Origin: Nitrospinota bacterium
GTDB lineage: Bacteria; Nitrospinota; Nitrospinia; Nitrospinales; VA-1
Assembly (NCBI GenBank): GCA_036339675.1
Contig: JAYZAN010000084.1
Coordinates: 1 to 34,637 of the forward strand
DNA: 34,637 nt
Reading direction: 5' to 3'
Made by a program: the position numbers and the translations under genes. This document shows positions 846 through 10,859 of this stretch, piece after piece. The notes beneath the pieces are model-generated. The model saw nothing but the letters and a program-made list of their open reading frames with translations. It had not been told where the DNA came from and searched no databases. Position 1 is the stretch's first letter, and the number at the start of each line of letters is the position of its first letter.

Positions 846-1640
846 ATGTCCGAGCCCTCTATGCTGGATGCAGCGATGCTCCAATCCAATCTGGACTCGA
901 TCCTAATCGGAGAAAAACTACTGGTTTTTCAGGAAACCGCCTCCACCAATGACCTCGCCAAGACCTATTTCCAGGAGGGGGCGGTCCAGGGACTGATCCT
1001 TATCGCGGACCGGCAAACCGACGGGAAGGGGCGTTTCGGAAGGAGCTGGCATTCCGAATCCGAGGTGGGTATATATACCTCCATCCTTTTAGTCCCGGAC
1101 CTTCCGGTGGAAACACTTTCCGGTCTTCCGTTGTTGGCAGGGGTGGCGGTGGTGACCGCCGTCAATGAGTTCAGCCACCCTAACGCATCTCTCAAATGGC
1201 CGAATGATATCCTCCTGAACGGAAAAAAACTGGGCGGGGTGCTTTGTGAAACCGTTCGGAACCCGCAGGGACAAACGGGTGTCGTGGTGGGAATAGGCAT
1301 CAACGTCAATCACAATTCGTTTCCGGAAGAACTTCGATCCATCGCAACCTCGATACACCTGGAAATGGGCCATCCTATAGACCGGCAGGCCCTCATCCTT
1401 TCCCTTCTGCACCACCTGGACCGGGAGTACCAGGATTTTCTGATCAAGGGGATCGCGGGAATCACCGCCAAATGGTCCCAACACACTAAGATGTTTGGAA
1501 GCTCCATCACCCTGATTAAAGGTAAAACACGGATTCATGGAACCGCTTTACAGCTTGATGAAAAAGGAAACCTGGTAATCCGAACTCCGGAGGGTAACAC
1601 CATGGCCTTCGATTCGGGAGAAGTCACCATGGAAAGCTGA
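846..1640 (+). CDS. birA: Biotin--[acetyl-CoA-carboxylase] ligase (group I BirA, without an N-terminal HTH domain).
   Basis: 264 aa. It contains the biotin-protein-ligase glycine-rich motif GKGRFGRSWHS (the GRGRxGRxW box) and a C-terminal SH3-like tail, with no DNA-binding N-domain. Confidence 0.85.
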   Translation: MSEPSMLDAAMLQSNLDSILIGEKLLVFQETASTNDLAKTYFQEGAVQGLILIADRQTDGKGRFGRSWHSESEVGIYTSILLVPDLPVETLSGLPLLAGVAVVTAVNEFSHPNASLKWPNDILLNGKKLGGVLCETVRNPQGQTGVVVGIGINVNHNSFPEELRSIATSIHLEMGHPIDRQALILSLLHHLDREYQDFLIKGIAGITAKWSQHTKMFGSSITLIKGKTRIHGTALQLDEKGNLVIRTPEGNTMAFDSGEVTMES

Positions 1641-1709
1641 GAGTTCCATTCTATTTGGAAAGCATGATTTTTTTCAGGATAAATAGATCGTCCACAGGCC
1701 GGGGCGGGA

Positions 1710-2210
1710 TCAGAGGGATCCGCTCAGCCCTATATTCAAATGGAACCCGCCAAAATGGAAGGCATCCTCCTGCCAAGAATGAATTTCGATAGCTCGCAAA
1801 AGGATATATTTGTATCGGGAAAATTGCAAAGGATGCATTTCACTTCCCAGTACCTCCCCCGCTACCGTAATTTTGTGTCCTTTCTGATAAGCTGCTTCCG
1901 GTTGAAAAGAATCAGGTATGATAAGAAACCGGCCCTGGGTACGGTCATCCAGGCCAGGTTTCAAACGCCACCCCAACGATCTTTCCAATACCTCAACACG
2001 AATTTCATGGTCCACCTCAAACACCCTCAAAACGGTTCCGCCGAGCAGGACGGTTTTTCCTGTATAGGCTTCTGGGTTACGATGAAACTCGTCGAACAGA
2101 AAATCTCGCTCGCTCCGCTTCAGAATTTCTTCGGAAATGATGGAGGCACATCCGCAAAAGAAACAGATAGCCCCCATCATAAGAAGGATAAAACTGAAAA
2201 TCCGCGTCAT
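1710..2210 (-). CDS. Slp-family outer-membrane lipoprotein (paralog 1).
   Basis: 166 aa with a hydrophobic N-terminus carrying Cys (FFCGCAS). The Slp-like core YTGKTVLLGGTVLRVFEV...RFLII resembles the starvation lipoprotein Slp family. Confidence 0.65.
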   Translation of the reverse strand: MTRIFSFILLMMGAICFFCGCASIISEEILKRSERDFLFDEFHRNPEAYTGKTVLLGGTVLRVFEVDHEIRVEVLERSLGWRLKPGLDDRTQGRFLIIPDSFQPEAAYQKGHKITVAGEVLGSEMHPLQFSRYKYILLRAIEIHSWQEDAFHFGGFHLNIGLSGSL

Positions 2211-2235
2211 ATCGAACCTCCGGGGTCAAGAATGG

Positions 2236-2808
2236 CTATCGGGGAAGATGCAGGGGATGAAACAGGGGCCGGTAATAAGGGTCCCAGTAATACGGATCGT
2301 CATACCCTGTGTAAGGGAACACTTTTTCCCATAAATAGAGTTCCTCCACCTCGATCACCGGATATTCATAGTCCCTGGAACCTATTTTTTTCAGGACATG
2401 GCCCACTACCTTTCCCCCACCCGTAACCGCCCGGCCCTTGGCGTAAATCTCCGGTTCCAGGAAACCGGATCGGGTGAAGATGAAACGGCCGCCCGTTAAG
2501 TCCCCGTACTCTGGGTAACCCAAACGGTCCATATCCTTCTGTACAACCTCTATCTCGGACCTACCTGGAAATATCCGCGTTTCAATAATGATTCCGCCCA
2601 GGACTACTTTCTCACCGATATAGGCACCAGGGTCTTTCAGAACCGCACCAAAGGAAATTGTTTCATCGACCTGGCTTCGGAAATTTTCGGAAATAGGATG
2701 CGCACATGCCAGAAACGCAAAACCACATAGAAACAAAATAAACCGTGGCAGGGCAGGGGAATCAAAAAGGCGGGTGGTACCAGTGGCTGGTGAACAATGG
2801 TTCTTCAA
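2236..2808 (-). CDS. Slp-family outer-membrane lipoprotein (paralog 2, tandem to paralog 1). The start is uncertain (TTG at 2806-2808).
   Basis: 190 aa. AYIGEKVVLGGIIIETRIF...RFIFTRSG parallels AYTGKTVLLGGTVLRVFEV...RFLIIPDS of the downstream paralog. It has a signal-like segment FILFLCGFAFLAC, and its start overlaps the stop of the upstream ORF (TTGA). Confidence 0.6.
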   Translation of the reverse strand: MKNHCSPATGTTRLFDSPALPRFILFLCGFAFLACAHPISENFRSQVDETISFGAVLKDPGAYIGEKVVLGGIIIETRIFPGRSEIEVVQKDMDRLGYPEYGDLTGGRFIFTRSGFLEPEIYAKGRAVTGGGKVVGHVLKKIGSRDYEYPVIEVEELYLWEKVFPYTGYDDPYYWDPYYRPLFHPLHLPR

Positions 2809-3026
2809 AAGCTTTCTTTCTTGATATGCTTTATTCTTGGAATGGTGCTCAGAAAATCCTCAAAATCGTCACAACATTCCTGAATGAAAAGATTAAATTC
2901 GCCTTCCTTCATATTCTTTTCGGAATAAATCTTGGGCCGGGATTTCAACTTATGTCCGATTTTCAGAAACTCCATAAAATTGGCCCGGCATTCATCGACG
3001 AAGCGGTTATAATCATAATCCACCAC
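2805..3026 (-). CDS. ORF overlapping the 3' end of the J-domain gene in another frame. Probably the displaced C-terminal portion of the J-domain protein (frameshift) rather than an independent gene.
   Basis: This frame is open from 3086 to 2805 (84 codons). Its TGA stop overlaps the TTG start of the downstream Slp gene (TTGA), a typical operon junction. An A7 homopolymer at 3056-3062 lies where the two frames could join. Confidence 0.3.
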   Translation of the reverse strand: MVDYDYNRFVDECRANFMEFLKIGHKLKSRPKIYSEKNMKEGEFNLFIQECCDDFEDFLSTIPRIKHIKKESF

Positions 3027-3352
3027 CGACTGCTGGGAATAAACCCGTTTGCTGCTTTTTTTCTCTGCCAGACCAGTTCCTTGCTTTTAAACCGGCCCTG
3101 TCGATGGATGAACCGCCCTAGTATCCGGTCATAGGCCCTTCGCTTCTGCTCATCTGAAAGGATATTATACGCTTCGGTACAGAGCACGAATTTGCGGGTG
3201 GGTTTTCTGTTTCCCGGAAAACGGTCAGGGTGATGTTTCAAGGCATTGACCCGGTACCCTTTCTTGATCTCTTCCAGGCTCGCAAACTTCACCACCCCCA
3301 GAAGCTGGTACAGGTTATAGGGCTTTAAAAATTCCTGCATCTTCATGATCAA
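2963..3352 (-). CDS. J-domain (DnaJ-domain) protein. Its reading frame appears interrupted after the J domain.
   Basis: N-terminal 70 aa form a canonical J domain: YQLLGV...EIKKGYR..ALKHHPDR...EAYNILSDEQKRRAYD with the HPD motif. After about residue 90 the ORF reads as featureless sequence and stops at 2963, while an overlapping frame stays open down to 2805. Confidence 0.7.
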   Translation of the reverse strand: MIMKMQEFLKPYNLYQLLGVVKFASLEEIKKGYRVNALKHHPDRFPGNRKPTRKFVLCTEAYNILSDEQKRRAYDRILGRFIHRQGRFKSKELVWQRKKAANGFIPSSRWWIMIITASSMNAGPILWSF

Positions 3353-3541
3353 TTCACTTATTCACTCGAATCCTTAACAACACTAACTGGTGGGTTAACT
3401 AATTATACACTCATTTAAGGCCATCCCAATAAATGGTGTCAGCCATGAGCCTGCTCTTTAAAAATGGGCCGGTGAACTTCCGGGATCAAGAATCCTGAAT
3501 TATCTGAGGTCTCCTTGAGTAATTTAAGATAAAATCCTCCC

Positions 3542-3940
3542 ATGCTAGAATTTTTATTAATCGTCTTTATCATCCTGCTTTTCATCTTTCCCGTACTGGC
3601 TCTGGCGGTTTTACTGAGACTTTTAACCACCGCGGTCTTGTACCGGAAACTTTATTTATTCGGACACCAGCTTACGGAAGGAAAGAATATCCTCGTTCCC
3701 AACGAAATCACCCAATGTGGCAATTTCATCACCAGCATCGTTATGGCCATTTTATCATCAGGAGTGGTTTTTATCCTGATCATCAACAATATCCTTCTTT
3801 TCGCCTTCAACATGGTTTTCTGCGCTTTTGTCTCTCTCAGGTGGTTCGACTACACGCATAACATGCACCGCGATGCCATCCGGAAAATGAATCCGAAACT
3901 TCCGGAATCTTCCAACCGGTCGGTGTTTGTGGTCTGCTAG
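3542..3940 (+). CDS. Hypothetical integral membrane protein (3-4 predicted TM helices).
   Basis: 132 aa, strongly hydrophobic (LLIVFIILLFIFPVLALAVLL; IVMAILSSGVVFILIINNILLFAFNMVFCAF). No recognisable family. Confidence 0.5.
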   Translation: MLEFLLIVFIILLFIFPVLALAVLLRLLTTAVLYRKLYLFGHQLTEGKNILVPNEITQCGNFITSIVMAILSSGVVFILIINNILLFAFNMVFCAFVSLRWFDYTHNMHRDAIRKMNPKLPESSNRSVFVVC

Positions 3941-4269
3941 GGACTGCAGTCTGGCACTGGACTGGGCGGAGGAATGCTTCCATTCTTCACTGATTCCGGA
4001 TACCTTAGTTTCAGCAAGTCGGAAATCGTTTTCTAGGGAGTTTTCCTGAAGCAGAAGTTCGACGCCTACACCGTGGTATGCATGGAAAAGAAAAGTTTTG
4101 AAAAGATCAGGATCATCGCCAATCGCCTGAGCCACCATCAAACGCCGAGGCCTGGCAAATCGTCTTCAAAGAGCAGTTCTATCCCTTTAAAAGCTGTGAT
4201 CTCTGCAACCGCATCGCCCTTCGCCTCCTCGATCTCTGACAGGTTTTTGTTTTATCTCAGAGCTCCCGG

Positions 4270-4298
4270 TTGAACTGATTCCTGATACCTTATAAAAT
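4270..4298 (+). promoter_or_regulatory. Candidate sigma70-type promoter for the DnaJ-like gene (TTGAAC-N17-TAAAAT or TTGAAC-N15-TATAAA).
   Basis: TTGAAC at 4270-4275 and TATAAAAT at 4291-4298, about 45 nt upstream of the ATG at 4341. No CIRCE element was seen. Confidence 0.3.
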
Positions 4299-4340
4299 AG
4301 AACCATTCCGTAATCGACCCATTTTCCATATATAACTGTC

Positions 4341-5255
4341 ATGCCGGCCACCAAACAAAGGGACTATTACAAAATACTTGGGGTCAAGAAAAAGTCGACT
4401 CTCAAGGACATCAAGAAATCCTACCGGGAGCTGGCGAGAAAATTCCATCCCGACACCAACCAGGGGAGCAAAAAAGCCGAGGAGAAATTCAAGATCATCT
4501 CCGAAGCCTATGAAACCCTACGCAACAAAAAAAAGCGCAAGGAATATGACCAGAGATCGAGTTACGCCCGGCGTGGTCCCAGGACCCAATGGAACGATCC
4601 CGGCGGGAATTACGGGTACGGATATGGCGAGCAACAAAGAACCCGGCAACAATACCAGGAACCTTTCACTCAAACCGCGGAAGAACAAGCTCCCCTCGAA
4701 CCGGATATGCCGAGGGCGGGGTTCGATCTTCAGTTCATGATCAATGTTCCGTTCATGACCGTGGCCCTGGGCGGAGTGGTTCCCTATAGTTATGAAAAAT
4801 ACGTGAACTGCGGCGACTGCGAGGGCACCGGGGAAAAAGACGATACCACCTGCGAAACCTGCCAGGGAAAACGCTGGGTAGTGAGTCCCGTCACCCTGGA
4901 CGTGAAGATTCCCCCCGGTGTGGCCGACCAGTACACGCTTTGCATCCAGAAGGAAGGGGGAGAAGGACTCAACGGCGCGCCTCCGGGCGATTTATTCCTG
5001 AAAGTCCAGACCCAGCCCCATCCACCCTTCAAGCGGGTGAAGGAAAACATTCTCGTGGAGGCCCCCATCCCGGCCAGTCTGGCCGAAAACGGCGGACCGC
5101 TGAAGGTGCAAACGCTGAACTCCACGAAAACCATCGAAGTGGAAGAAGGAACCATTTCGGGAGAGGAATATCGAATCCCCGGGGAAGGCGCCGCCATCAT
5201 GTGGGGGAAAAAACGCGGTGACCTGATCATCAAGTTCATCATCGAGGACGAATGA
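4341..5255 (+). CDS. DnaJ-family co-chaperone with a J domain, a short G/Y-rich linker, a reduced zinc finger (only two CxxC motifs) and DnaJ-like C-terminal beta domains.
   Basis: J domain DYYKILGV...FHPD...EAYETL. Linker GGNYGYGYG. CGDCEGTGEKDDTTCETCQGKRW gives one CxxCxGxG plus one CxxCxGxR, versus four repeats in canonical DnaJ. The C-terminal domain resembles DnaJ CTDI/II. Confidence 0.85.
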   Translation: MPATKQRDYYKILGVKKKSTLKDIKKSYRELARKFHPDTNQGSKKAEEKFKIISEAYETLRNKKKRKEYDQRSSYARRGPRTQWNDPGGNYGYGYGEQQRTRQQYQEPFTQTAEEQAPLEPDMPRAGFDLQFMINVPFMTVALGGVVPYSYEKYVNCGDCEGTGEKDDTTCETCQGKRWVVSPVTLDVKIPPGVADQYTLCIQKEGGEGLNGAPPGDLFLKVQTQPHPPFKRVKENILVEAPIPASLAENGGPLKVQTLNSTKTIEVEEGTISGEEYRIPGEGAAIMWGKKRGDLIIKFIIEDE

Positions 5256-5569
5256 AAACTCTCGTCACCATCTTTGGTATCATTGTCCTGATCCTGATCG
5301 TCATCATCATCACCGTCATCCTCAAACCGGAGGAGAAGCCGGCCGTCCGCAAGATCCAGAAACCTCGGCCTCAACCCAAAAAGAAACCGGAACGAAAAAG
5401 CAGATTCAAGGAACCGCCTCCGCCGGAACAACTGCGGCAGGACATTTCTCAACTGGCAATAGAAGAGCCCAAACTGGTCGTTAATATCGTGAGAAAATGG
5501 CTCAAGGAGGGTGGGAGACCCGGGGATAATATGATAAGAAAAAAAGGCAGTCCCGCCAAAAATAAATAA
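5252..5569 (+). CDS. Small single-pass membrane protein with a Pro/Lys-rich linker and a C-terminal amphipathic segment, translationally coupled to the DnaJ-like gene.
   Basis: ATGA overlap with the stop of the DnaJ-like gene. N-terminal TM helix IFGIIVLILIVIIITVIL, linker KPRPQPKKKPERKSRFKEPPPPE, and C-terminus AIEEPKLVVNIVRKWLKEGG. Confidence 0.55.
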   Translation: MKTLVTIFGIIVLILIVIIITVILKPEEKPAVRKIQKPRPQPKKKPERKSRFKEPPPPEQLRQDISQLAIEEPKLVVNIVRKWLKEGGRPGDNMIRKKGSPAKNK

Positions 5570-5575
5570 GGAGCG

Positions 5576-6346
5576 TTATCCTTTCTTCTTGGCTACCTCT
5601 GCCGCATGGGCCTTTGCCCGTTTCAGCATGGCGGCCCTTTCTTCCGGAGTGAACGTGCGCTTGGGAGTAGCCGGTTTGTCGACAGCAGGTTTGGCGGCGG
5701 TTTTGCCGGCAACCGGTTTAGCGGCGGGTTTCGCCTTGCCGTTCGCCGTGTCGGCGTTGGCTTCAGCAGGTGCGGCCTCTTCTTCGACCGGTTCGGTCCC
5801 GACAGGAGGCGGTGGCGGCTCTCCTTCTATACGTACCAGCCGCATGGACGACCAGACATCTTGGGTCGGGTAAGGCGTGTCCACACCTATTTTGAAATCC
5901 ATGCGGATGATTTTTTCATCACTGCATTCGCTGATCCAGGTGTTGGATGCCCCGCCGGGAGCGAAGATCGGATCCAGGGGATACCCCGTTCCGTTCTTAT
6001 CCATCAGGATCTTGGTCTTGGTTTTATCGAACAGGGTGAGCGACTCCTTCTTGTTCGGGATTCTCCAGTTATCGAAACCGCCGAACTTATCCTTGTTCTG
6101 GTTGACCCAGTCCACATACTCCCGGTGCGTCTGCCAGGGATAGAATTTTTTCATATCCAGCCAGGCATCGGTTTTTTTCCAGGTCAGATTGGAATTGGGA
6201 TCGAAGATGGTTCCGTCGCCGTTATCCACCAAGGGTTTGGCGGCGGGAGCTTCCTTCTTGGGGGGCGCCTTGGCCGCGGGCTTTTCCACGCCTTCAGCCG
6301 GTTTGGCAGACTCTTTCTCTGGTGATGCGGACGGATTTTCGCTCAT
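5576..6346 (-). CDS. DUF1566 (Lcl C-terminal domain) protein with lysine/alanine/proline-rich, histone-H1-like N- and C-terminal tails. No signal peptide.
   Basis: Core DNGDGTIFDPNSNLTWKK...NWRIPNKKESLTL matches the DUF1566 signature (NGDGT..D..TGL.W / WRLPT..EL). Tails include KPAAKAPPKKEAPAAKP and KPAAKPVAGKTAAKPAVDKPATPK. Confidence 0.7.
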   Translation of the reverse strand: MSENPSASPEKESAKPAEGVEKPAAKAPPKKEAPAAKPLVDNGDGTIFDPNSNLTWKKTDAWLDMKKFYPWQTHREYVDWVNQNKDKFGGFDNWRIPNKKESLTLFDKTKTKILMDKNGTGYPLDPIFAPGGASNTWISECSDEKIIRMDFKIGVDTPYPTQDVWSSMRLVRIEGEPPPPPVGTEPVEEEAAPAEANADTANGKAKPAAKPVAGKTAAKPAVDKPATPKRTFTPEERAAMLKRAKAHAAEVAKKKG

Positions 6347-6374
6347 AAAAAAAATATTTTTTAGCTAAGATAAA

Positions 6375-6665
6375 CTAATGGGTGGGTTTGGTTTTGAGTG
6401 CCGTCAAGCCGTTGCCGTCGAGCAACTGCCCGAGATCTTTTCCCGACCGTGTCAGCTCGCACAATATCCCTCCGAGCTCCGTCGCCGAGCACGAACCCAG
6501 GCGGGTCTGAAACTTCATACGGTAACCCGCGGCGTTCTTAGTGATCCAATCGAGAATGCATTGTTCGTCACCGCCTTCGCCTTCCTCAGCCTTCTTTTTC
6601 TCCAGCAGATTGGTCTGAGAAAGACGTATGATCTCGCAAATCAAATCGTCTTTGATGTGGCTCAT
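6375..6665 (-). CDS. Hypothetical small protein (96 aa).
   Basis: Clean ORF in an operon position between oppC and the DUF1566 gene. Contains CILDWITKNAAGYR...LGSCSATELGGILCEL. No family recognised. Confidence 0.45.
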   Translation of the reverse strand: MSHIKDDLICEIIRLSQTNLLEKKKAEEGEGGDEQCILDWITKNAAGYRMKFQTRLGSCSATELGGILCELTRSGKDLGQLLDGNGLTALKTKPTH

Positions 6666-6765
6666 AGCTCAATCCAAACAGAAAAACCTTACAAAGATCG
6701 CAAATCTATAACGATTTTCTTACCTTGTCAAATTCTAATATTCAGAGCGGAACAAGGCAATACAT

Positions 6766-6779
6766 TTCAAATATTTGAA
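6766..6779. promoter_or_regulatory. Perfect 14-bp palindrome TTCAAATATTTGAA in the oppC/small-gene intergenic region.
   Basis: Self-complementary sequence about 100 nt upstream of the start of the 96-aa gene (6665, minus strand). Confidence 0.3.
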
Positions 6780-6901
6780 AAGAAATTGACCCTCTGTCTC
6801 ATCCTTCAAATGGTTCCTTTGTATGCTTTATTTTATCCCATATTTGACGGGGTCTCCAAGCAAAATTGGTAATACCCCAGCAAAACAGCCCGGAACAAGG
6901 A

Positions 6902-7726
6902 TCAGGTCGGACGCGACCGGTCCTTCGGATCGAGGATGTCACGCAATCCTTCTCCAAGGAAATTAAATGCCAGTATGGTCAAAAAAATCGCCATCGACGG
7001 AAACAGGATCAGGTGCGGATAAAACTTAATCGCTTTCCAGCCGTCGTTGGCTAGAGTGCCCCAGCTGCTGAACGGAGGCGAGATGCCCAGCCCGATGAAA
7101 CTCAAGGTCGATTCGGCGAGGATGGCAACGGGAATGCGAAAACTGAGTGTCACCACCAGGAGCCCAGTTATGTTGGGCAGGATCTCGCGCAGGAGTATCC
7201 GTATATGTCCCGCGCCCTGCGCCCGGGCCGCTTCCACATAGGTGTACTCTTTGATGCGCAGGACTTCCCCGCGCACTAGCCGGGCCACCGTCACCCAACT
7301 CACGAGAGTCAGGGCGATGAAGATGCCCATCACCCCCCGTCCCATCACCACGGTGATGAGGATGATCATCAGAAGATCGGGAAGCGCAAAAACCACATCG
7401 ACAATACGCATGAGAAAGTTATCGGTCCGTCCGCCTACATAACCGGAAATGGCGCCGTACACCATCCCTATGATCAGGGCTACAAGCGTGGTCGCAACAC
7501 CGATGAACAGCGACACCCGCGCGCCGTATATCAGGCGGGAAAAAAGATCGCGTCCCAGACGGTCCGTGCCCATCCAGTGTTTCCAGTTAGGAGCCGCAAG
7601 GAGACTCGCCGCGTCCTGCGTTTCGTAGGAATACGGCGCCGCCCATGGCGCAAAGACCGCCACCGATATAACTGTGATCAAGAATCCAGCGCTTAATTGA
7701 CTCGATAATGAAAATTTGAAATTCAT
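6902..7726 (-). CDS. ABC transporter permease, OppC/DppC family (peptide or nickel type).
   Basis: 274 aa, six TM segments. EAA loop YVEAARAQGAGHIRILLREILPN. The N-terminal region is typical of OppC. Confidence 0.85.
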   Translation of the reverse strand: MNFKFSLSSQLSAGFLITVISVAVFAPWAAPYSYETQDAASLLAAPNWKHWMGTDRLGRDLFSRLIYGARVSLFIGVATTLVALIIGMVYGAISGYVGGRTDNFLMRIVDVVFALPDLLMIILITVVMGRGVMGIFIALTLVSWVTVARLVRGEVLRIKEYTYVEAARAQGAGHIRILLREILPNITGLLVVTLSFRIPVAILAESTLSFIGLGISPPFSSWGTLANDGWKAIKFYPHLILFPSMAIFLTILAFNFLGEGLRDILDPKDRSRPT

Positions 7727-7738
7727 TACACGTTATTA

Positions 7739-7751
7739 ACCACAGATGAAT
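7739..7751 (-). promoter_or_regulatory. Copy 1 of the repeated motif ATTCATCTGTGGT (minus-strand sense), in the oppC 5' leader.
   Basis: A 13-mer identical to 8759-8771. The extended match continues as N-C-N-GATA. It lies 12 nt upstream of the oppC start. Confidence 0.4.
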
Positions 7752-7818
7752 GCCGATACCCCAAAACCCCTTCTTCCTTGACCGGTCAGGCTTCGCCGCT
7801 AGGCGAGAATTTTGAACT

Positions 7819-8733
7819 TCATATCTTGACCCTTGGGTCAAGATAGGCATAGATCATATCGACAAAAATATTGGCGAGAACGATGAGCACGGCATAGACC
7901 AGGGTGACGCCCATGATCAACGGATAATCCCGGTTGGTCACGGCGGTGATGAAAAATCTTCCCATACCGGGAATGGAGAATATGAACTCGATCACGAACG
8001 ATCCGGTCACCAGTCCGGCGGTCAACGGACCGATCACCGTCACGATTGGGTAGATGGCATTTTTCAACGTGTGTTTGAACAGGACCACCGGTTCGGTCAT
8101 CCCCTTGGCGCGGGCGGTGCGGATGTAATCCGAAGACAACACCTCAAGCACGGAAGAGCGAGTGAGCCTGGCGATGTACCCGGCAAACGGCAACCCTAAA
8201 GCCAGTGATGGAAGGATCACATGCCTCGGTTCTTCCCACAACGCCGGCGGAAACACGTGCCACTTATGTGAAAGTCCCCACACCAGCACCGTCCCCAGCA
8301 CAAAACTGGGAACGGAGATTCCCAAAGTCGCCAGCAGGACGCAGATCCTGTCCAATAGAGAATTCTGCCAATAGGCGGATAAGATACCGGTGGGGATACC
8401 CACCCCGACCACCACGAGCATGGCACAGAGTCCGAGAACCAGAGATACGGGAAACGTGTCTTTTAAAATATCAGCAACGTCGCGTCCGATGTACTTATAG
8501 GACGGGCCGAGCTCGCCCTGCGTGATCTGTTTCAGGAACAGCAGGTACTGGGTGATGAGAGGTTCGTCGAGATGGTATTTCGCTTCGATGTTGGCGATGA
8601 TTTCCGGCGGCAGTTTTTTTTCCGTGTCGAAGGGCCCGCCCGGCACCAGGTGCATGAAAATGAAGGTCAACGTCGCAACCACGATCAGTACCGGCACCCC
8701 ATACAACACCCGTTTGAAAAAATAACGAAACAT
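7819..8733 (-). CDS. ABC transporter permease, OppB/DppB family.
   Basis: 304 aa. N-terminus MFRYFFKRVLYGVPVLIVVATLTF and EAA-like loop YIRTARAKGMTEPVVLFKHTLKNAIYP. Confidence 0.85.
   Translation of the reverse strand: MFRYFFKRVLYGVPVLIVVATLTFIFMHLVPGGPFDTEKKLPPEIIANIEAKYHLDEPLITQYLLFLKQITQGELGPSYKYIGRDVADILKDTFPVSLVLGLCAMLVVVGVGIPTGILSAYWQNSLLDRICVLLATLGISVPSFVLGTVLVWGLSHKWHVFPPALWEEPRHVILPSLALGLPFAGYIARLTRSSVLEVLSSDYIRTARAKGMTEPVVLFKHTLKNAIYPIVTVIGPLTAGLVTGSFVIEFIFSIPGMGRFFITAVTNRDYPLIMGVTLVYAVLIVLANIFVDMIYAYLDPRVKI
7824..7843. promoter_or_regulatory. Perfect inverted repeat TCTTGACCC-TT-GGGTCAAGA (9-bp arms) over the last codons of oppB.
   Basis: Operator-like palindrome located in the final codons of oppB (stop at 7819-7821), immediately upstream of the 92-bp oppB-oppC spacer. 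Confidence 0.35.
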
Positions 8734-8758
8734 GAAAATATCCTAACACATAGGGGGG

Positions 8759-8771
8759 ACCACAGATGAAT
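8759..8771 (-). promoter_or_regulatory. Copy 2 of the motif ATTCATCTGTGGT, in the oppB 5' leader.
   Basis: Identical 13-mer, 25 nt upstream of the oppB start codon (8733). Confidence 0.4.
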
Positions 8772-8920
8772 TCTGATAAACAAAATATCCCTCTCCTCCT
8801 ACTAGCTCCATAGCATTCTCTTTTCTCCCTCTTATTCATTAAGGATTTATAGGTGTCACCCTCATCCCCGCCTTCTCCCATCAAGGAAGAAGGGATATTT
8901 GTTTTTAGGTGTTTATCTGT

Positions 8921-8932
8921 GTTCATCGGTGG
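8921..8932 (+). promoter_or_regulatory. Copy 3 of the motif (TTCATCGGTGGT, 11/12 identical), in inverted orientation upstream of the UbiD-family gene.
   Basis: Plus-strand TTCATCgGTGGT preceded by ATCTGTG, about 100 nt upstream of the ATG at 9033. Together with copies 1 and 2 it brackets the divergent intergenic region. Confidence 0.35.
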
Positions 8933-9032
8933 TTTCCCTAATTTTTTCCACTCTTCTATCCCGTCTAGGTATAATAGGCGGTTGGTTTTTTATTTTTCTT
9001 CTCCTCGGACGTTGTCCGCCGTTTGACCGCCC

Positions 9033-10859
9033 ATGATCTACGATTCCCTCAGAGAATTCATCGAACGCCTCGAAATGGACAAGGAACTCATCCGCGTCAC
9101 CGAACCGGTCTCCCCCATCCTGGAAATCGCCGATATCACCGACCGGGTCTCCAAACTCGACGGCGGCGGCAAAGCATTACTTTTTGAAAATGTCGAGGGC
9201 AGTTCCATTCCCGTGCTCATCAACGCCTTCGGCAGCACAAAAAGAATGAACGCCGCCCTCGGCGTCCACGACGTCGAACAGATCGCACAGGACATCGAAA
9301 AATATCTTCATGTCGCTCCCCCTTCATCTTTGATGGATAAGGTGAAACTGCTTCCCATGCTGCTGGAAGCGGCGCATTTCCCGCCGAAGCTGGTCAACGC
9401 GTCAAACGCCCTCTGCCAGGAGGTGGTGCACACGGGAGACGATGTCGATCTCGGGATGATCCCCATTATCCAGTGCTGGCCGCAGGATGCCGGACGCTTC
9501 ATCACCTTTCCCATCGTCATCAACCGGAGCGCCGACCGTAAGTTGAGGAACGTCGGGCTCTACCGCATGCAGGTGTTCGACAAAAAAACCACGGCGATGC
9601 ACTGGCACATACACAAGGACGGGGCGCATTTTTTCCACGATTACAGAAAACAGAACAAGGTGATGGAAGTCGCCGTCGCCATCGGCGCCGACCCCACGGT
9701 CTGCTACGCCGCGTCCGCCCCCCTGCCCTACGGCATCGACGAATTTCTACTGGCAGGGTTCATCAGGAAATCCGCCGTGCCTCTCGTCAAATGCAAGACG
9801 GTGGACCTGGAAGTGCCAGCCACCTCCGAGATCGTGCTGGAAGGGTTCATCGATCCGGCCGAGATGCGCCTGGAAGGTCCGTTCGGCGACCATACGGGTT
9901 ATTACTCGCAGGACGGGGACTACCCGGTGCTTCATCTCACCGCCATCACACACCGCAGGAACCCGGTCTACCTGACCACCATCGTCGGCATCCCGCCGCA
10001 GGAGGATTTCTACCTGGGCCAGGCCACTGAGCGGATTTTTCTGCCGCTGATGCGCACGCAGCTTCCGGAGATCGTCGACATGGACATGCCGGTCGAGGGG
10101 GTGTTCCACAACTGTGTGATCATCTCAATCGACAAGCGTTTTCCCATGCAGGCCCGGCGGCTGATGAACGCCTTATGGGGAATGGGGCAGATGAGTTTCG
10201 TCAAAACCATCATGGTGGTCGACCATGATATCGATGTGCACAACCACGAGCATGTGATGCGTCTTCTTCTCAACCGGGTGGACCTGTTGCGTGATTTGTT
10301 TTTTTCAGAAGGCATCCTCGATGTGCTCAACCACGCATCGGATCAGAAACTGTACGGCTCCAAGGTCGGCATCGACGCCACCGGGAAGATCGAAGGTGAA
10401 CCCGGTTTTGGAGAACATCCGCCGGAGGAACATAGCCGCACCCTGTCGCCCGATCCGGAATCGGTCATCCAGACCTTCAAGGAGGTCAAGGACTGCCGCG
10501 TCTTCGAGATGAATGTGAGGAATCCCGTTCTCTTCGTCGCTTTGGACAAGACCGGACCGCACCAGAGCCGGGAATTCATCAAGGCGTTTTTCGAGCATGA
10601 GGAATATTCGGCGATTCATATCCTGATCGTGCTCGAGGGTCATGTGGATGTGGCCGATACATCCCAGGTCATGTGGAAATTTTTCAACAACCTTGATCCG
10701 CGCAGGGATATTCATATTTTCGGAAAACGCCTAGGCATCGACGTCACCCGGAAATACAGGGGGGAAGGCTATGAGCAGGACTGGCCGGACGAAATCGTCA
10801 TGACGAAAGAGATACGCGACAAGGTCGACGAAAAATGGGATTCCCTGTTCAAAAATTAG
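9033..10859 (+). CDS. UbiD-family (prenylated-FMN-dependent) aromatic acid decarboxylase, e.g. a quinone-biosynthesis decarboxylase.
   Basis: 608 aa. The N-terminus MIYDSLREFIERLE...LIRV and a conserved core (GRF..FP, HW.IHKDG, DEF.LAG, GPFGDHTGYY) are typical of UbiD/Fdc1. Confidence 0.85.
   Translation: MIYDSLREFIERLEMDKELIRVTEPVSPILEIADITDRVSKLDGGGKALLFENVEGSSIPVLINAFGSTKRMNAALGVHDVEQIAQDIEKYLHVAPPSSLMDKVKLLPMLLEAAHFPPKLVNASNALCQEVVHTGDDVDLGMIPIIQCWPQDAGRFITFPIVINRSADRKLRNVGLYRMQVFDKKTTAMHWHIHKDGAHFFHDYRKQNKVMEVAVAIGADPTVCYAASAPLPYGIDEFLLAGFIRKSAVPLVKCKTVDLEVPATSEIVLEGFIDPAEMRLEGPFGDHTGYYSQDGDYPVLHLTAITHRRNPVYLTTIVGIPPQEDFYLGQATERIFLPLMRTQLPEIVDMDMPVEGVFHNCVIISIDKRFPMQARRLMNALWGMGQMSFVKTIMVVDHDIDVHNHEHVMRLLLNRVDLLRDLFFSEGILDVLNHASDQKLYGSKVGIDATGKIEGEPGFGEHPPEEHSRTLSPDPESVIQTFKEVKDCRVFEMNVRNPVLFVALDKTGPHQSREFIKAFFEHEEYSAIHILIVLEGHVDVADTSQVMWKFFNNLDPRRDIHIFGKRLGIDVTRKYRGEGYEQDWPDEIVMTKEIRDKVDEKWDSLFKN

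Follow-up and report, generated by a model that had tools for sequence, protein, structure and literature searches.

The stretch of DNA analysed here (henceforth the window: 34,637 nucleotides, contig JAYZAN010000084.1 of the Nitrospinota assembly GCA_036339675.1) carries on its minus strand, at 2805-3352, the coding sequence of a J-domain protein distributed over two reading frames. From comparison with orthologous sequences this is a single gene for a protein of about 180 amino acids (aa), interrupted at a run of seven adenines (A7). The same relatives indicate that the functional gene of this species has a run of eight (A8) and that the window has A8 minus one. We think it somewhat better than an even bet (probability about 0.55) that the frameshift is a real, very recent inactivation at the level of the strain, produced by replication slippage from A8 to A7. 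The frameshift is either an ordinary recent inactivation of this kind or an assembly error, and involves no new mechanism of recoding. The gene (henceforth the J gene) is made up as follows.

3063..3352, minus strand: 5' part of the J gene in the original frame, with the J domain, its HPD motif (HHPDR) and the start of the linker.
3056..3062, minus strand: A7 run, site of the one-base deletion; the intact allele has A8, AGA AAA AAA AGC, read as R K K S.
2805..3055, minus strand: 3' part of the J gene, now in the -1 frame, with the C-terminal domain SSKRVYSQQSVVDYDYNRFVDECRANF...TIPRIKHIKKESF and a TGA stop at 2807-2805.

A first-pass annotation made from the letters of the window had described both frames, the A7 run and the junction with the downstream gene, and all of these coordinates were confirmed when the sequence was read again. 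The minus-strand open reading frame (ORF) 3352..2963 encodes 129 aa, with a TTG at 3352, an ATG at 3346 that agrees with the starts of the orthologs (MKM...), and a stop at 2963-2965. The second minus-strand frame, open from 3086, ends in the TGA at 2807-2805, which overlaps the TTG at 2808 that starts a 190-aa ORF of the Slp family (TTGA). The A7 at 3056-3062 (coding strand; T7 on the plus strand) is the sole long run in the overlap of the two frames. Passing from the first frame to the second requires a -1 shift, equivalent to one added A, and gives a joined product of 180 aa from the ATG at 3346 or 182 aa from the TTG at 3352. Left unshifted, the first frame continues past the run into a 32-aa out-of-frame tail that ends the 129-aa product at 2963-2965. 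The annotation of the second frame in the source record is limited to a 56-aa hypothetical protein (VX667_04630).

That the two frames are one gene split at the A7 run, and can be joined there by one nucleotide, was proposed in the first-pass annotation and is borne out by the orthologs. A 182-aa protein encoded by a single ORF in another assembly (P0003) is 98% identical to the 180-aa joined protein over 100% of its length. More distant orthologs are likewise single ORFs: P0004 (180 aa, from a Nitrospinaceae metagenome-assembled genome, MAG), P0005 (177 aa) and P0007 (196 aa) show 71%, 59% and 53% identity to the joined protein, respectively, and the alignment of the family is gapless across the junction of the two frames. 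A survey with one genome per GTDB species gave 29 loci of the J gene, all of them from Nitrospinota; the gene is a single ORF of 171-183 aa in 25, is cut by the end of the contig in one and is disrupted in three. We looked for orthologs that end near the equivalent of 2963 and have a closed downstream frame, and found the opposite, single ORFs of about 180 aa.

These comparisons also bear on a reading as two separate genes, i.e. a short J protein ending at 2963 and an independent protein of 56-73 aa in the other frame, for which speak the 56-aa hypothetical protein of the source record and a 72-aa product called on another contig of the species (L001) by gene callers. Searched exhaustively with HMMER, the second frame by itself returned 12 representatives among 1.84 billion, one of them a spurious repeat protein. 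Eight of the 12 were full-length matches of about 161-179 aa that carry the C-terminal domain at about residues 80-176, and the named members all come from Nitrospinota (Nitrospinaceae, Nitrospina and Candidatus Nitrohelix vancouverensis). No ortholog has anything that corresponds to the 32-aa tail of the 129-aa ORF, and in none does the C-terminal part have a separate start. Two separate genes are, on this evidence, scarcely credible, and in practice the ortholog comparison led us to reject them. A word-indexed search with the C-terminal frame alone found just two fragments, and it took the joined protein to find the orthologs; a profile search with the C-terminal domain contributed little further.

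The length of the run in relatives identifies the intact state. Five contigs of the same species (a cluster at at least 90% identity) cross the site in a single frame, and the run is A8 in all four same-species contigs that could be read across it at 98.0-98.6% identity (L001, L002, L041 and L042), three of which have complete J ORFs. Among them are L002, from Tara Oceans, which is 98.6% identical to window positions 1405-10537 (9.1 kb) and reads AGA AAA AAA AGC, and L041, 98.3% identical over 2452 bp, in which the A tract is the only indel relative to the window. In three other species (L012, L013 and L015) an A8 lies in frame at the same codons (AGA AAA AAA ACN), L014 has an in-frame A7, and in the orthologs at 71-53% identity the run is absent from the site (AGG CGT AAA TCC and similar). 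Because the contigs of the same species have A8 or cross the site in one frame, and other species have an in-frame A8 or no run, we take A8 as functional and the window as the allele with a one-base deletion. DNA pattern scans for the flanks of the tract gave zero matches in JGI metagenomes and GTDB species genomes.

Two apparent tract variants, L001 (A8 plus an extra G) and L007 (A10), were set aside as chimeric scaffolds, since at or near the site both are joined to unrelated sequence of low GC content (37% and 33%, respectively, vs 51%). Both (L001:1-498 and L007:681-782) are short ENA metagenome scaffolds of the same species and are probably chimeric assemblies, one of the joins lying inside the J domain and the other precisely at the poly-A run, where the A10 is found. 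L042, which belongs to the same kind of scaffold set, has another extra A (at window 2916) besides its A8.

Whether the missing base was lost by the organism or by the assembly turns in part on a neighbouring gene that the first-pass annotation had missed.

3542..4273, plus strand: membrane-protein pseudogene, divergent partner of the J gene; polytopic; intact orthologs of 227-293 aa; no Pfam match.

This membrane-protein gene is present in 23 of the 29 species and is thus the most widely kept neighbour of the J gene among those surveyed. In the window it has three lesions: an in-frame TAG at 3938-3940, where L002 has CAG; an in-frame TAG at 4034-4036 that is common to the window and L002; and a one-base deletion near 4134, with GG in the window and GGG in L002. 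The TAG at 4034 is not an error, because the same nonsense codon is found in two independent assemblies. Going by these sequences, the gene is a pseudogene in the species, its inactivation being real and older than the split between the window and L002 strains, and the window strain has gathered further real changes in it, including the one-base deletion. No other gene of the window is broken besides the J gene and this pseudogene.

Under the reading we prefer, a real deletion, one base would have been lost from the coding A8 run, and standard decoding would then yield the 129-aa product, a J domain with an out-of-frame tail and without the C-terminal domain. The deletion would have struck a locus already decaying in this species, its membrane-protein partner being a pseudogene. 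Relative to the intact close orthologs in L002 and L041 the frame is disrupted by a one-base deletion, as would be expected of a frameshift pseudogene. Along the 9.1 kb shared with L002 there are four indel events, one intergenic, one an in-frame 6-nt repeat unit, one in the membrane-protein pseudogene and one in the A tract. Nonsynonymous and synonymous differences from L002 number 26:18 in the genes Slp1, Slp2, J and DnaJ-like (see below) and 11:24 in flanking genes (Fisher p = 0.023), a contrast of small numbers to which Slp1 supplies 13 of the 26 nonsynonymous differences.

The last qualification is one of several points that weigh against a real inactivation. A change of one base in the length of a homopolymer has the classic look of a sequencing or assembly error. 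The J gene has no second lesion and its C-terminal frame is fully open, which is as compatible with an error as with a mutation of very recent date. The A7 allele is found in one assembly only, the other same-species contigs covering the site having A8 (apart from the one short chimeric scaffold with A10). Frameshifts at A runs in the J gene occur in other draft MAGs (at an A8 run in L018, and as A3 vs A4 in L008), so errors of this kind could be not rare in MAGs. Finally, the J gene is intact in lineages without an adjacent membrane partner (the L012 clade and L031), and loss of the partner alone therefore does not make it dispensable.

Several of these points are shared by the alternative of an intact 180-aa gene with A8 in the organism itself, from which the consensus dropped one A. 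Run length is the sole difference from the intact allele, and the downstream frame is intact, with three substitutions relative to L002 in 84 codons. Set beside the single A7 assembly are six other same-species contigs that are in frame across the site or have A8, and the short metagenome scaffolds of the species show obvious artefacts, namely the chimeric low-GC ends of L001 and L007 and the extra A of L042. Against an artefact stands the general quality of the window, which contains 47 comparable homopolymer runs (7 nt or longer for A/T, 6 nt or longer for G/C), none of which breaks a frame elsewhere; the roughly 30 other long ORFs, of up to 1117 aa, are all open. Within the 9.1-kb overlap, all 15 other runs (10 A/T and 5 G/C) have the same length in the window and in L002. 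Moreover, two differences between the window and L002, the loss of one base from a G run of 3 nt and a nonsense substitution, both lie in the pseudogene, and these count against an artefact because real mutations, not errors, would concentrate there. We regard a dropped base as a possible explanation, to be held tentatively and at clearly less than even odds.

Decay of the J gene elsewhere in the phylum was counted as support for a real deletion in the window. On one Nitrospinales chromosome (OZ253496.1; L021:3742-4282) the J gene is clearly decayed, an inserted A in helix III of the J domain causing a frameshift; the usual HPDR is replaced by HPDV, and the membrane partner is truncated to 174 aa. 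On another (OZ252246.1; L033:3950-4282) its decay is clear as well: the N-terminal J domain has been lost, a TAA is present, and neither the partner nor a DnaJ-like gene is found nearby.

Two draft assemblies have split J genes of their own. In an uncultured Nitrospina sp. (CATMOP010000128.1; L018:2722-3254) the gene is divided into 127 aa and 71 aa by a break at an A8 (L018:2963) about eight codons upstream of the site in the window; with A9 at this place the protein would again be collinear with those of relatives such as L028. In a species-level relative of the window (CAYFLW010000450.1; L008:1166-1870) it is split by an A3 where A4 would keep the frame, and the J domain is interrupted by an N10 scaffold gap, which makes the quality of this assembly doubtful.

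The first-pass annotation had named three causes for the two frames. Sequencing error and recent pseudogenisation both remain, whereas a conserved programmed slippage is disfavoured, as the two-frame layout is absent in 25 of the 29 species. More broadly, the poly-A run might be a functional switch, used for phase-variable on/off expression or for transcriptional or -1 ribosomal slippage, and in the slippage version the gene may make both the J-domain-only and the full-length protein. The phase of the run speaks for such a switch. In the zero frame the run reads AG A AAA AAA GCA, a slippery-type heptamer of the form X XXY YYZ in phase for a -1 shift (A AAA AAA), and slipping by -1 or adding one A would both lead to the exact wild-type protein sequence. 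Run length is polymorphic within the species, and a second species (L018) has a J-only plus C-terminal layout that would need a -1 shift at a different A8, about eight codons upstream. The comparative evidence points the other way: the layout is not conserved, since 25 of 29 species have a single ORF and the run is in frame or absent in the orthologs examined, and it is also missing from all other contigs of this species. The run does not exist in the orthologs at 71-53% identity, and A8, where present, is in frame.

Programmed -1 frameshifting is known from dnaX (A AAA AAG) and from transposases of the IS3 family (reviewed in PMC5009743). Like these systems, the window has a zero-frame X XXY YYZ heptamer of lysine codons and, potentially, a short product and a longer -1 product. 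Unlike them, its layout is not conserved in orthologs and a stimulatory structure or Shine-Dalgarno-like element was not detected: the fold of 3075-2975 is not significant (z = -1.74, with 9 of 200 shuffles folding as well) and contains no hairpin at the usual spacing of 5-9 nt downstream of the run, and the window sequence has no GGAGG-like element upstream of it. A further difference from dnaX is that the shift there shortens the product, whereas in the window it would lengthen it. As for phase variation, the comparison is between A7 in the window and A8 in L001, L002, L041 and L042, i.e. an off state seen once that may be an error.

Transcriptional slippage in bacteria is usually evident at runs of 9, in some organisms 8 (PMC1088944), and the A7 of the window is shorter. 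Slippage at A runs is nevertheless documented as a rescue of frameshifted bacterial genes (PMC1088944, PMC5009743), and genes with poly(A)-run frameshifts are partly rescued by transcriptional slippage in E. coli strain variants and in the insect endosymbiont Blochmannia (PMC1088944, PMC3017870, PMC5009743). As in those genes, the coding A run of the window is one base short of its in-frame length, and one A inserted in the mRNA would restore the normal protein; unlike them (their runs are 8-9 or more, or their genomes AT-rich and reduced), the window has A7 in a genome of 51% GC. The exact wild-type protein would be made again if the ribosome now and then slipped by -1 on A AAA AAA, or if RNA polymerase added one A, and a low-level leak on a run of seven is plausible from the sequence as a minor effect, not a designed mechanism. 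A functional switch at this run we consider quite improbable.

Turning to the protein itself, the joined product gave a single Pfam match, to PF00226 (72.1 bits vs a cut-off of 27.8; residues 11-73, the full 63-position profile), in agreement with the J domain first recognised in the ORF 3352..2963. The HPD motif is present (KHHPDR), its H, P and D being invariant or at least 90% conserved in sets of 12 and 30 family members. In the AlphaFold2 model of P0003, the J domain (residues 11-80) has a predicted local distance difference test score (pLDDT) of 86-94, and with Foldseek it aligns to solved J domains over about 65 residues with a root mean square deviation of 1.1-1.8 Å and a probability of 1.00. 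The profile match and the model together show a J-domain protein with a predicted four-helix J fold. Its domain content places it among the class C (type III) J proteins: the glycine/phenylalanine-rich (G/F) region, the zinc finger and DnaJ_C are absent from the 180 aa (Pfam, NCBIfam), the full-length NCBIfam models of DnaJ and CbpA match the J domain only and far under their cut-offs, and the DjlA model reaches 17.7 bits vs a cut-off of 162.

From the N-terminus, the protein consists of the J domain, whose HPD is intact, then of a linker of basic character and finally of a helical C-terminal domain of about 85 aa that is specific to the family. Three helices are predicted in the C-terminal 85 or so residues (pLDDT 60-88 in the P0003 model). 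The domain has no match in Pfam, NCBIfam or PDB sequences (best PDB profile match E = 0.18), and when its fold was searched for with Foldseek in the PDB all matches were J domains. Conserved motifs include F-S-EL-QR-K-KR-Y, VDHDFNRFVDECR-NF-FLK, RPKV, NM and VPRIK. The first-pass annotation had called the region a novel Cys-containing domain; the domain is indeed family-specific and free of database matches, but it is no cysteine module, as 29 of 30 orthologs keep Cys122 (DECR; numbered as in P0003) and the two cysteines of QECCDDF are kept in 11 and 1 of 30. A metal site built on cysteines was considered and rejected because one Cys alone is conserved. From the matches found, the family is small, uncharacterised and specific to Nitrospinota, given the 12 matches among 1.84 billion representatives and the Nitrospinota origin of 29 of 29 genome loci.

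If it works as J proteins do in general, the protein would dock on DnaK through its J domain and set off hydrolysis of ATP there, and the C-terminal domain would provide specificity for a client or a location. Bacterial class C J proteins include DjlA, DjlB and DjlC of E. coli, with which the window protein shares a J domain with HPD, the lack of the G/F region, zinc finger and DnaJ_C, and a remainder consisting of a family-specific module presumed to confer client or location specificity. A link to the membrane or envelope, as in DjlA, is here hinted at by the neighbourhood. Unlike DjlA, which has an N-terminal transmembrane segment and a C-terminal J domain, the window protein has its J domain at the N-terminus and no transmembrane segment of its own; unlike all three, it has a C-terminal domain without Pfam, NCBIfam or PDB match and belongs to a family found only in Nitrospinota.

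The remaining features of the neighbourhood are the following.

2236..2808, minus strand: Slp1 gene, 190 aa; TTG start overlapping the J stop; PF03843, 127 bits; lipobox-like FLAC.
1710..2210, minus strand: Slp2 gene, 166 aa; ATG start with GGAGG 7 nt upstream; PF03843, 92 bits; lipobox-like FCGC.
3402..3429, minus strand: promoter-like site, TTGGGA, 16 nt, TATAAT; 10 of 12 positions matched; some 50 nt upstream of the J start.
4341..5255, plus strand: DnaJ-like gene, 304 aa, with J domain, zinc-finger remnant and DnaJ_C; intact.
846..1640, plus strand: birA (biotin-protein ligase), convergent with the J-Slp-Slp unit.

E. coli Slp is an outer-membrane lipoprotein induced by starvation and in stationary phase. 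Like it, both window ORFs match Pfam PF03843 well over the cut-off (22.5 bits). They also show putative lipobox-like signal sequences, read by eye only (a hydrophobic stretch followed by FLAC/A in Slp1 and FCGC/A in Slp2). Unlike E. coli Slp, they fall below the cut-off of NCBIfam TIGR00752 (65.3 and 51 bits for Slp1 and Slp2 vs 88.45), and the genes occur in 0-2 copies directly after a J-protein gene. We know of no description of an enterobacterial slp gene placed after a J-protein gene, the literature not having been searched for this arrangement. Slp1 is orthologous to SlpA of Nitrohelix and to the Slp of L006 (47-49% identity; SlpA 47%), and Slp2 is a divergent paralog, 30% identical to Slp1; an exact-sequence look-up of the window Slp1 returned nothing on record. 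Relative to L002, Slp1 has 13 nonsynonymous and 4 synonymous differences (1:5 in the flanking permease genes) at an overall DNA identity of 98.6%, which suggests relaxed or diversifying selection on this gene.

The order J-Slp-Slp, already pointed out as unusual in the first-pass annotation, proved to be real and recurrent across the phylum, with a variable number of Slp genes. Among the 28 GTDB species in which this could be assessed, two Slp genes directly follow the J gene in 6, one in 9 and none in 13; two are also found in the window species and in Nitrohelix. The orthology of Slp1 with Nitrohelix SlpA implies that the pairing of J and Slp is old and was followed by losses. A recent insertion of the Slp genes beside the J gene, an idea drawn from two loci without Slp (L003 and L004), was rejected because J-Slp-Slp is found in Nitrohelix and Slp follows J in 15 of the 28 assessable species. 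The TTGA overlap is particular to the window species, the gaps in Nitrohelix and L006 being 49-74 nt. Co-transcription of J-Slp-Slp is putative, and the one element that points to it is the promoter-like site at 3429-3402, a consensus match that lies between the J gene and the divergent membrane-protein gene; promoter-like sites in this region are no more numerous than expected from shuffled sequence.

The J gene and its neighbours belong to a block conserved across the phylum. It starts with ABC permease genes, a small ORF and the gene of an Lcl_C protein, continues on the opposite strand with a transmembrane protein of about 100 aa, the DnaJ-like gene and the membrane-protein gene, and then comes the J gene, followed by the Slp genes and, on the opposite strand, birA. 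The complete Nitrohelix genome carries the whole block. In most Nitrospinota loci the DnaJ-like gene follows the membrane-protein gene on the same strand, and of 19 loci from relatives examined through gene tables or searches, 15 have birA as the boundary of the J-Slp-Slp unit. In the L012 clade the membrane-protein and DnaJ-like genes are absent from the locus and J-Slp-Slp is still tightly packed.

With Slp genes downstream and a polytopic membrane protein divergently upstream, the client of the J protein would appear to be related to the envelope, and the neighbourhood thus offers a concrete hypothesis, that of an envelope-directed DnaK co-chaperone. A bolder version, speculative and in our view unlikely, makes the protein a DnaK-recruiting adaptor for a Nitrospinota envelope module, with the poly-A runs of the linker serving as strain-level on/off switches. 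Its C-terminal domain would then bind the cytoplasmic tail of the membrane protein and/or the precursors of the Slp lipoproteins, and the cytosolic Hsp70 cycle would be coupled to the biogenesis or turnover of outer-membrane lipoproteins. The switches would be the recurrent linker runs, A7/A8 in the window and A8 in L018, where A9 is taken to be the intact length.

Nitrospinota include the main marine nitrite oxidisers. For this phylum the comparison defines a small uncharacterised J-protein family in a conserved neighbourhood of a DnaJ-like gene, a membrane-protein gene, the J gene and 0-2 Slp genes. In the annotation of the MAG, the J-domain ORF and VX667_04630 should be merged into one frameshifted gene, and a pseudogene should be entered for the remnant at 3542-4273. 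As the locus has decayed repeatedly and independently in several lineages, it can be used to mark the loss of genes at strain level in these populations. The family and its envelope-related surroundings are of mild interest, a single-base frameshift in a homopolymer is ordinary, and the current understanding of recoding and of chaperones is unchanged by these findings.

Scans of the window for tRNA genes and Rfam families were both empty. The zinc-finger remnant of the DnaJ-like protein reads CGDCEGTG...CETCQGKR and is below the cut-off of PF00684. The stop of this gene overlaps the start of a gene for a 105-aa protein with a single transmembrane segment (5252-5569, plus strand), and in most Nitrospinota loci this pair adjoins the membrane-protein gene. 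The Lcl_C-domain protein (PF07603; 5576-6346, minus strand) has low-complexity N- and C-terminal regions rich in Ala, Pro and Lys, and its gene is conserved in the same block in other Nitrospinota. The 6-nt indel relative to L002, a GAAGGC repeat unit at 6579-6584, is in frame and lies inside a 94-aa gene (L002:3872-4156).

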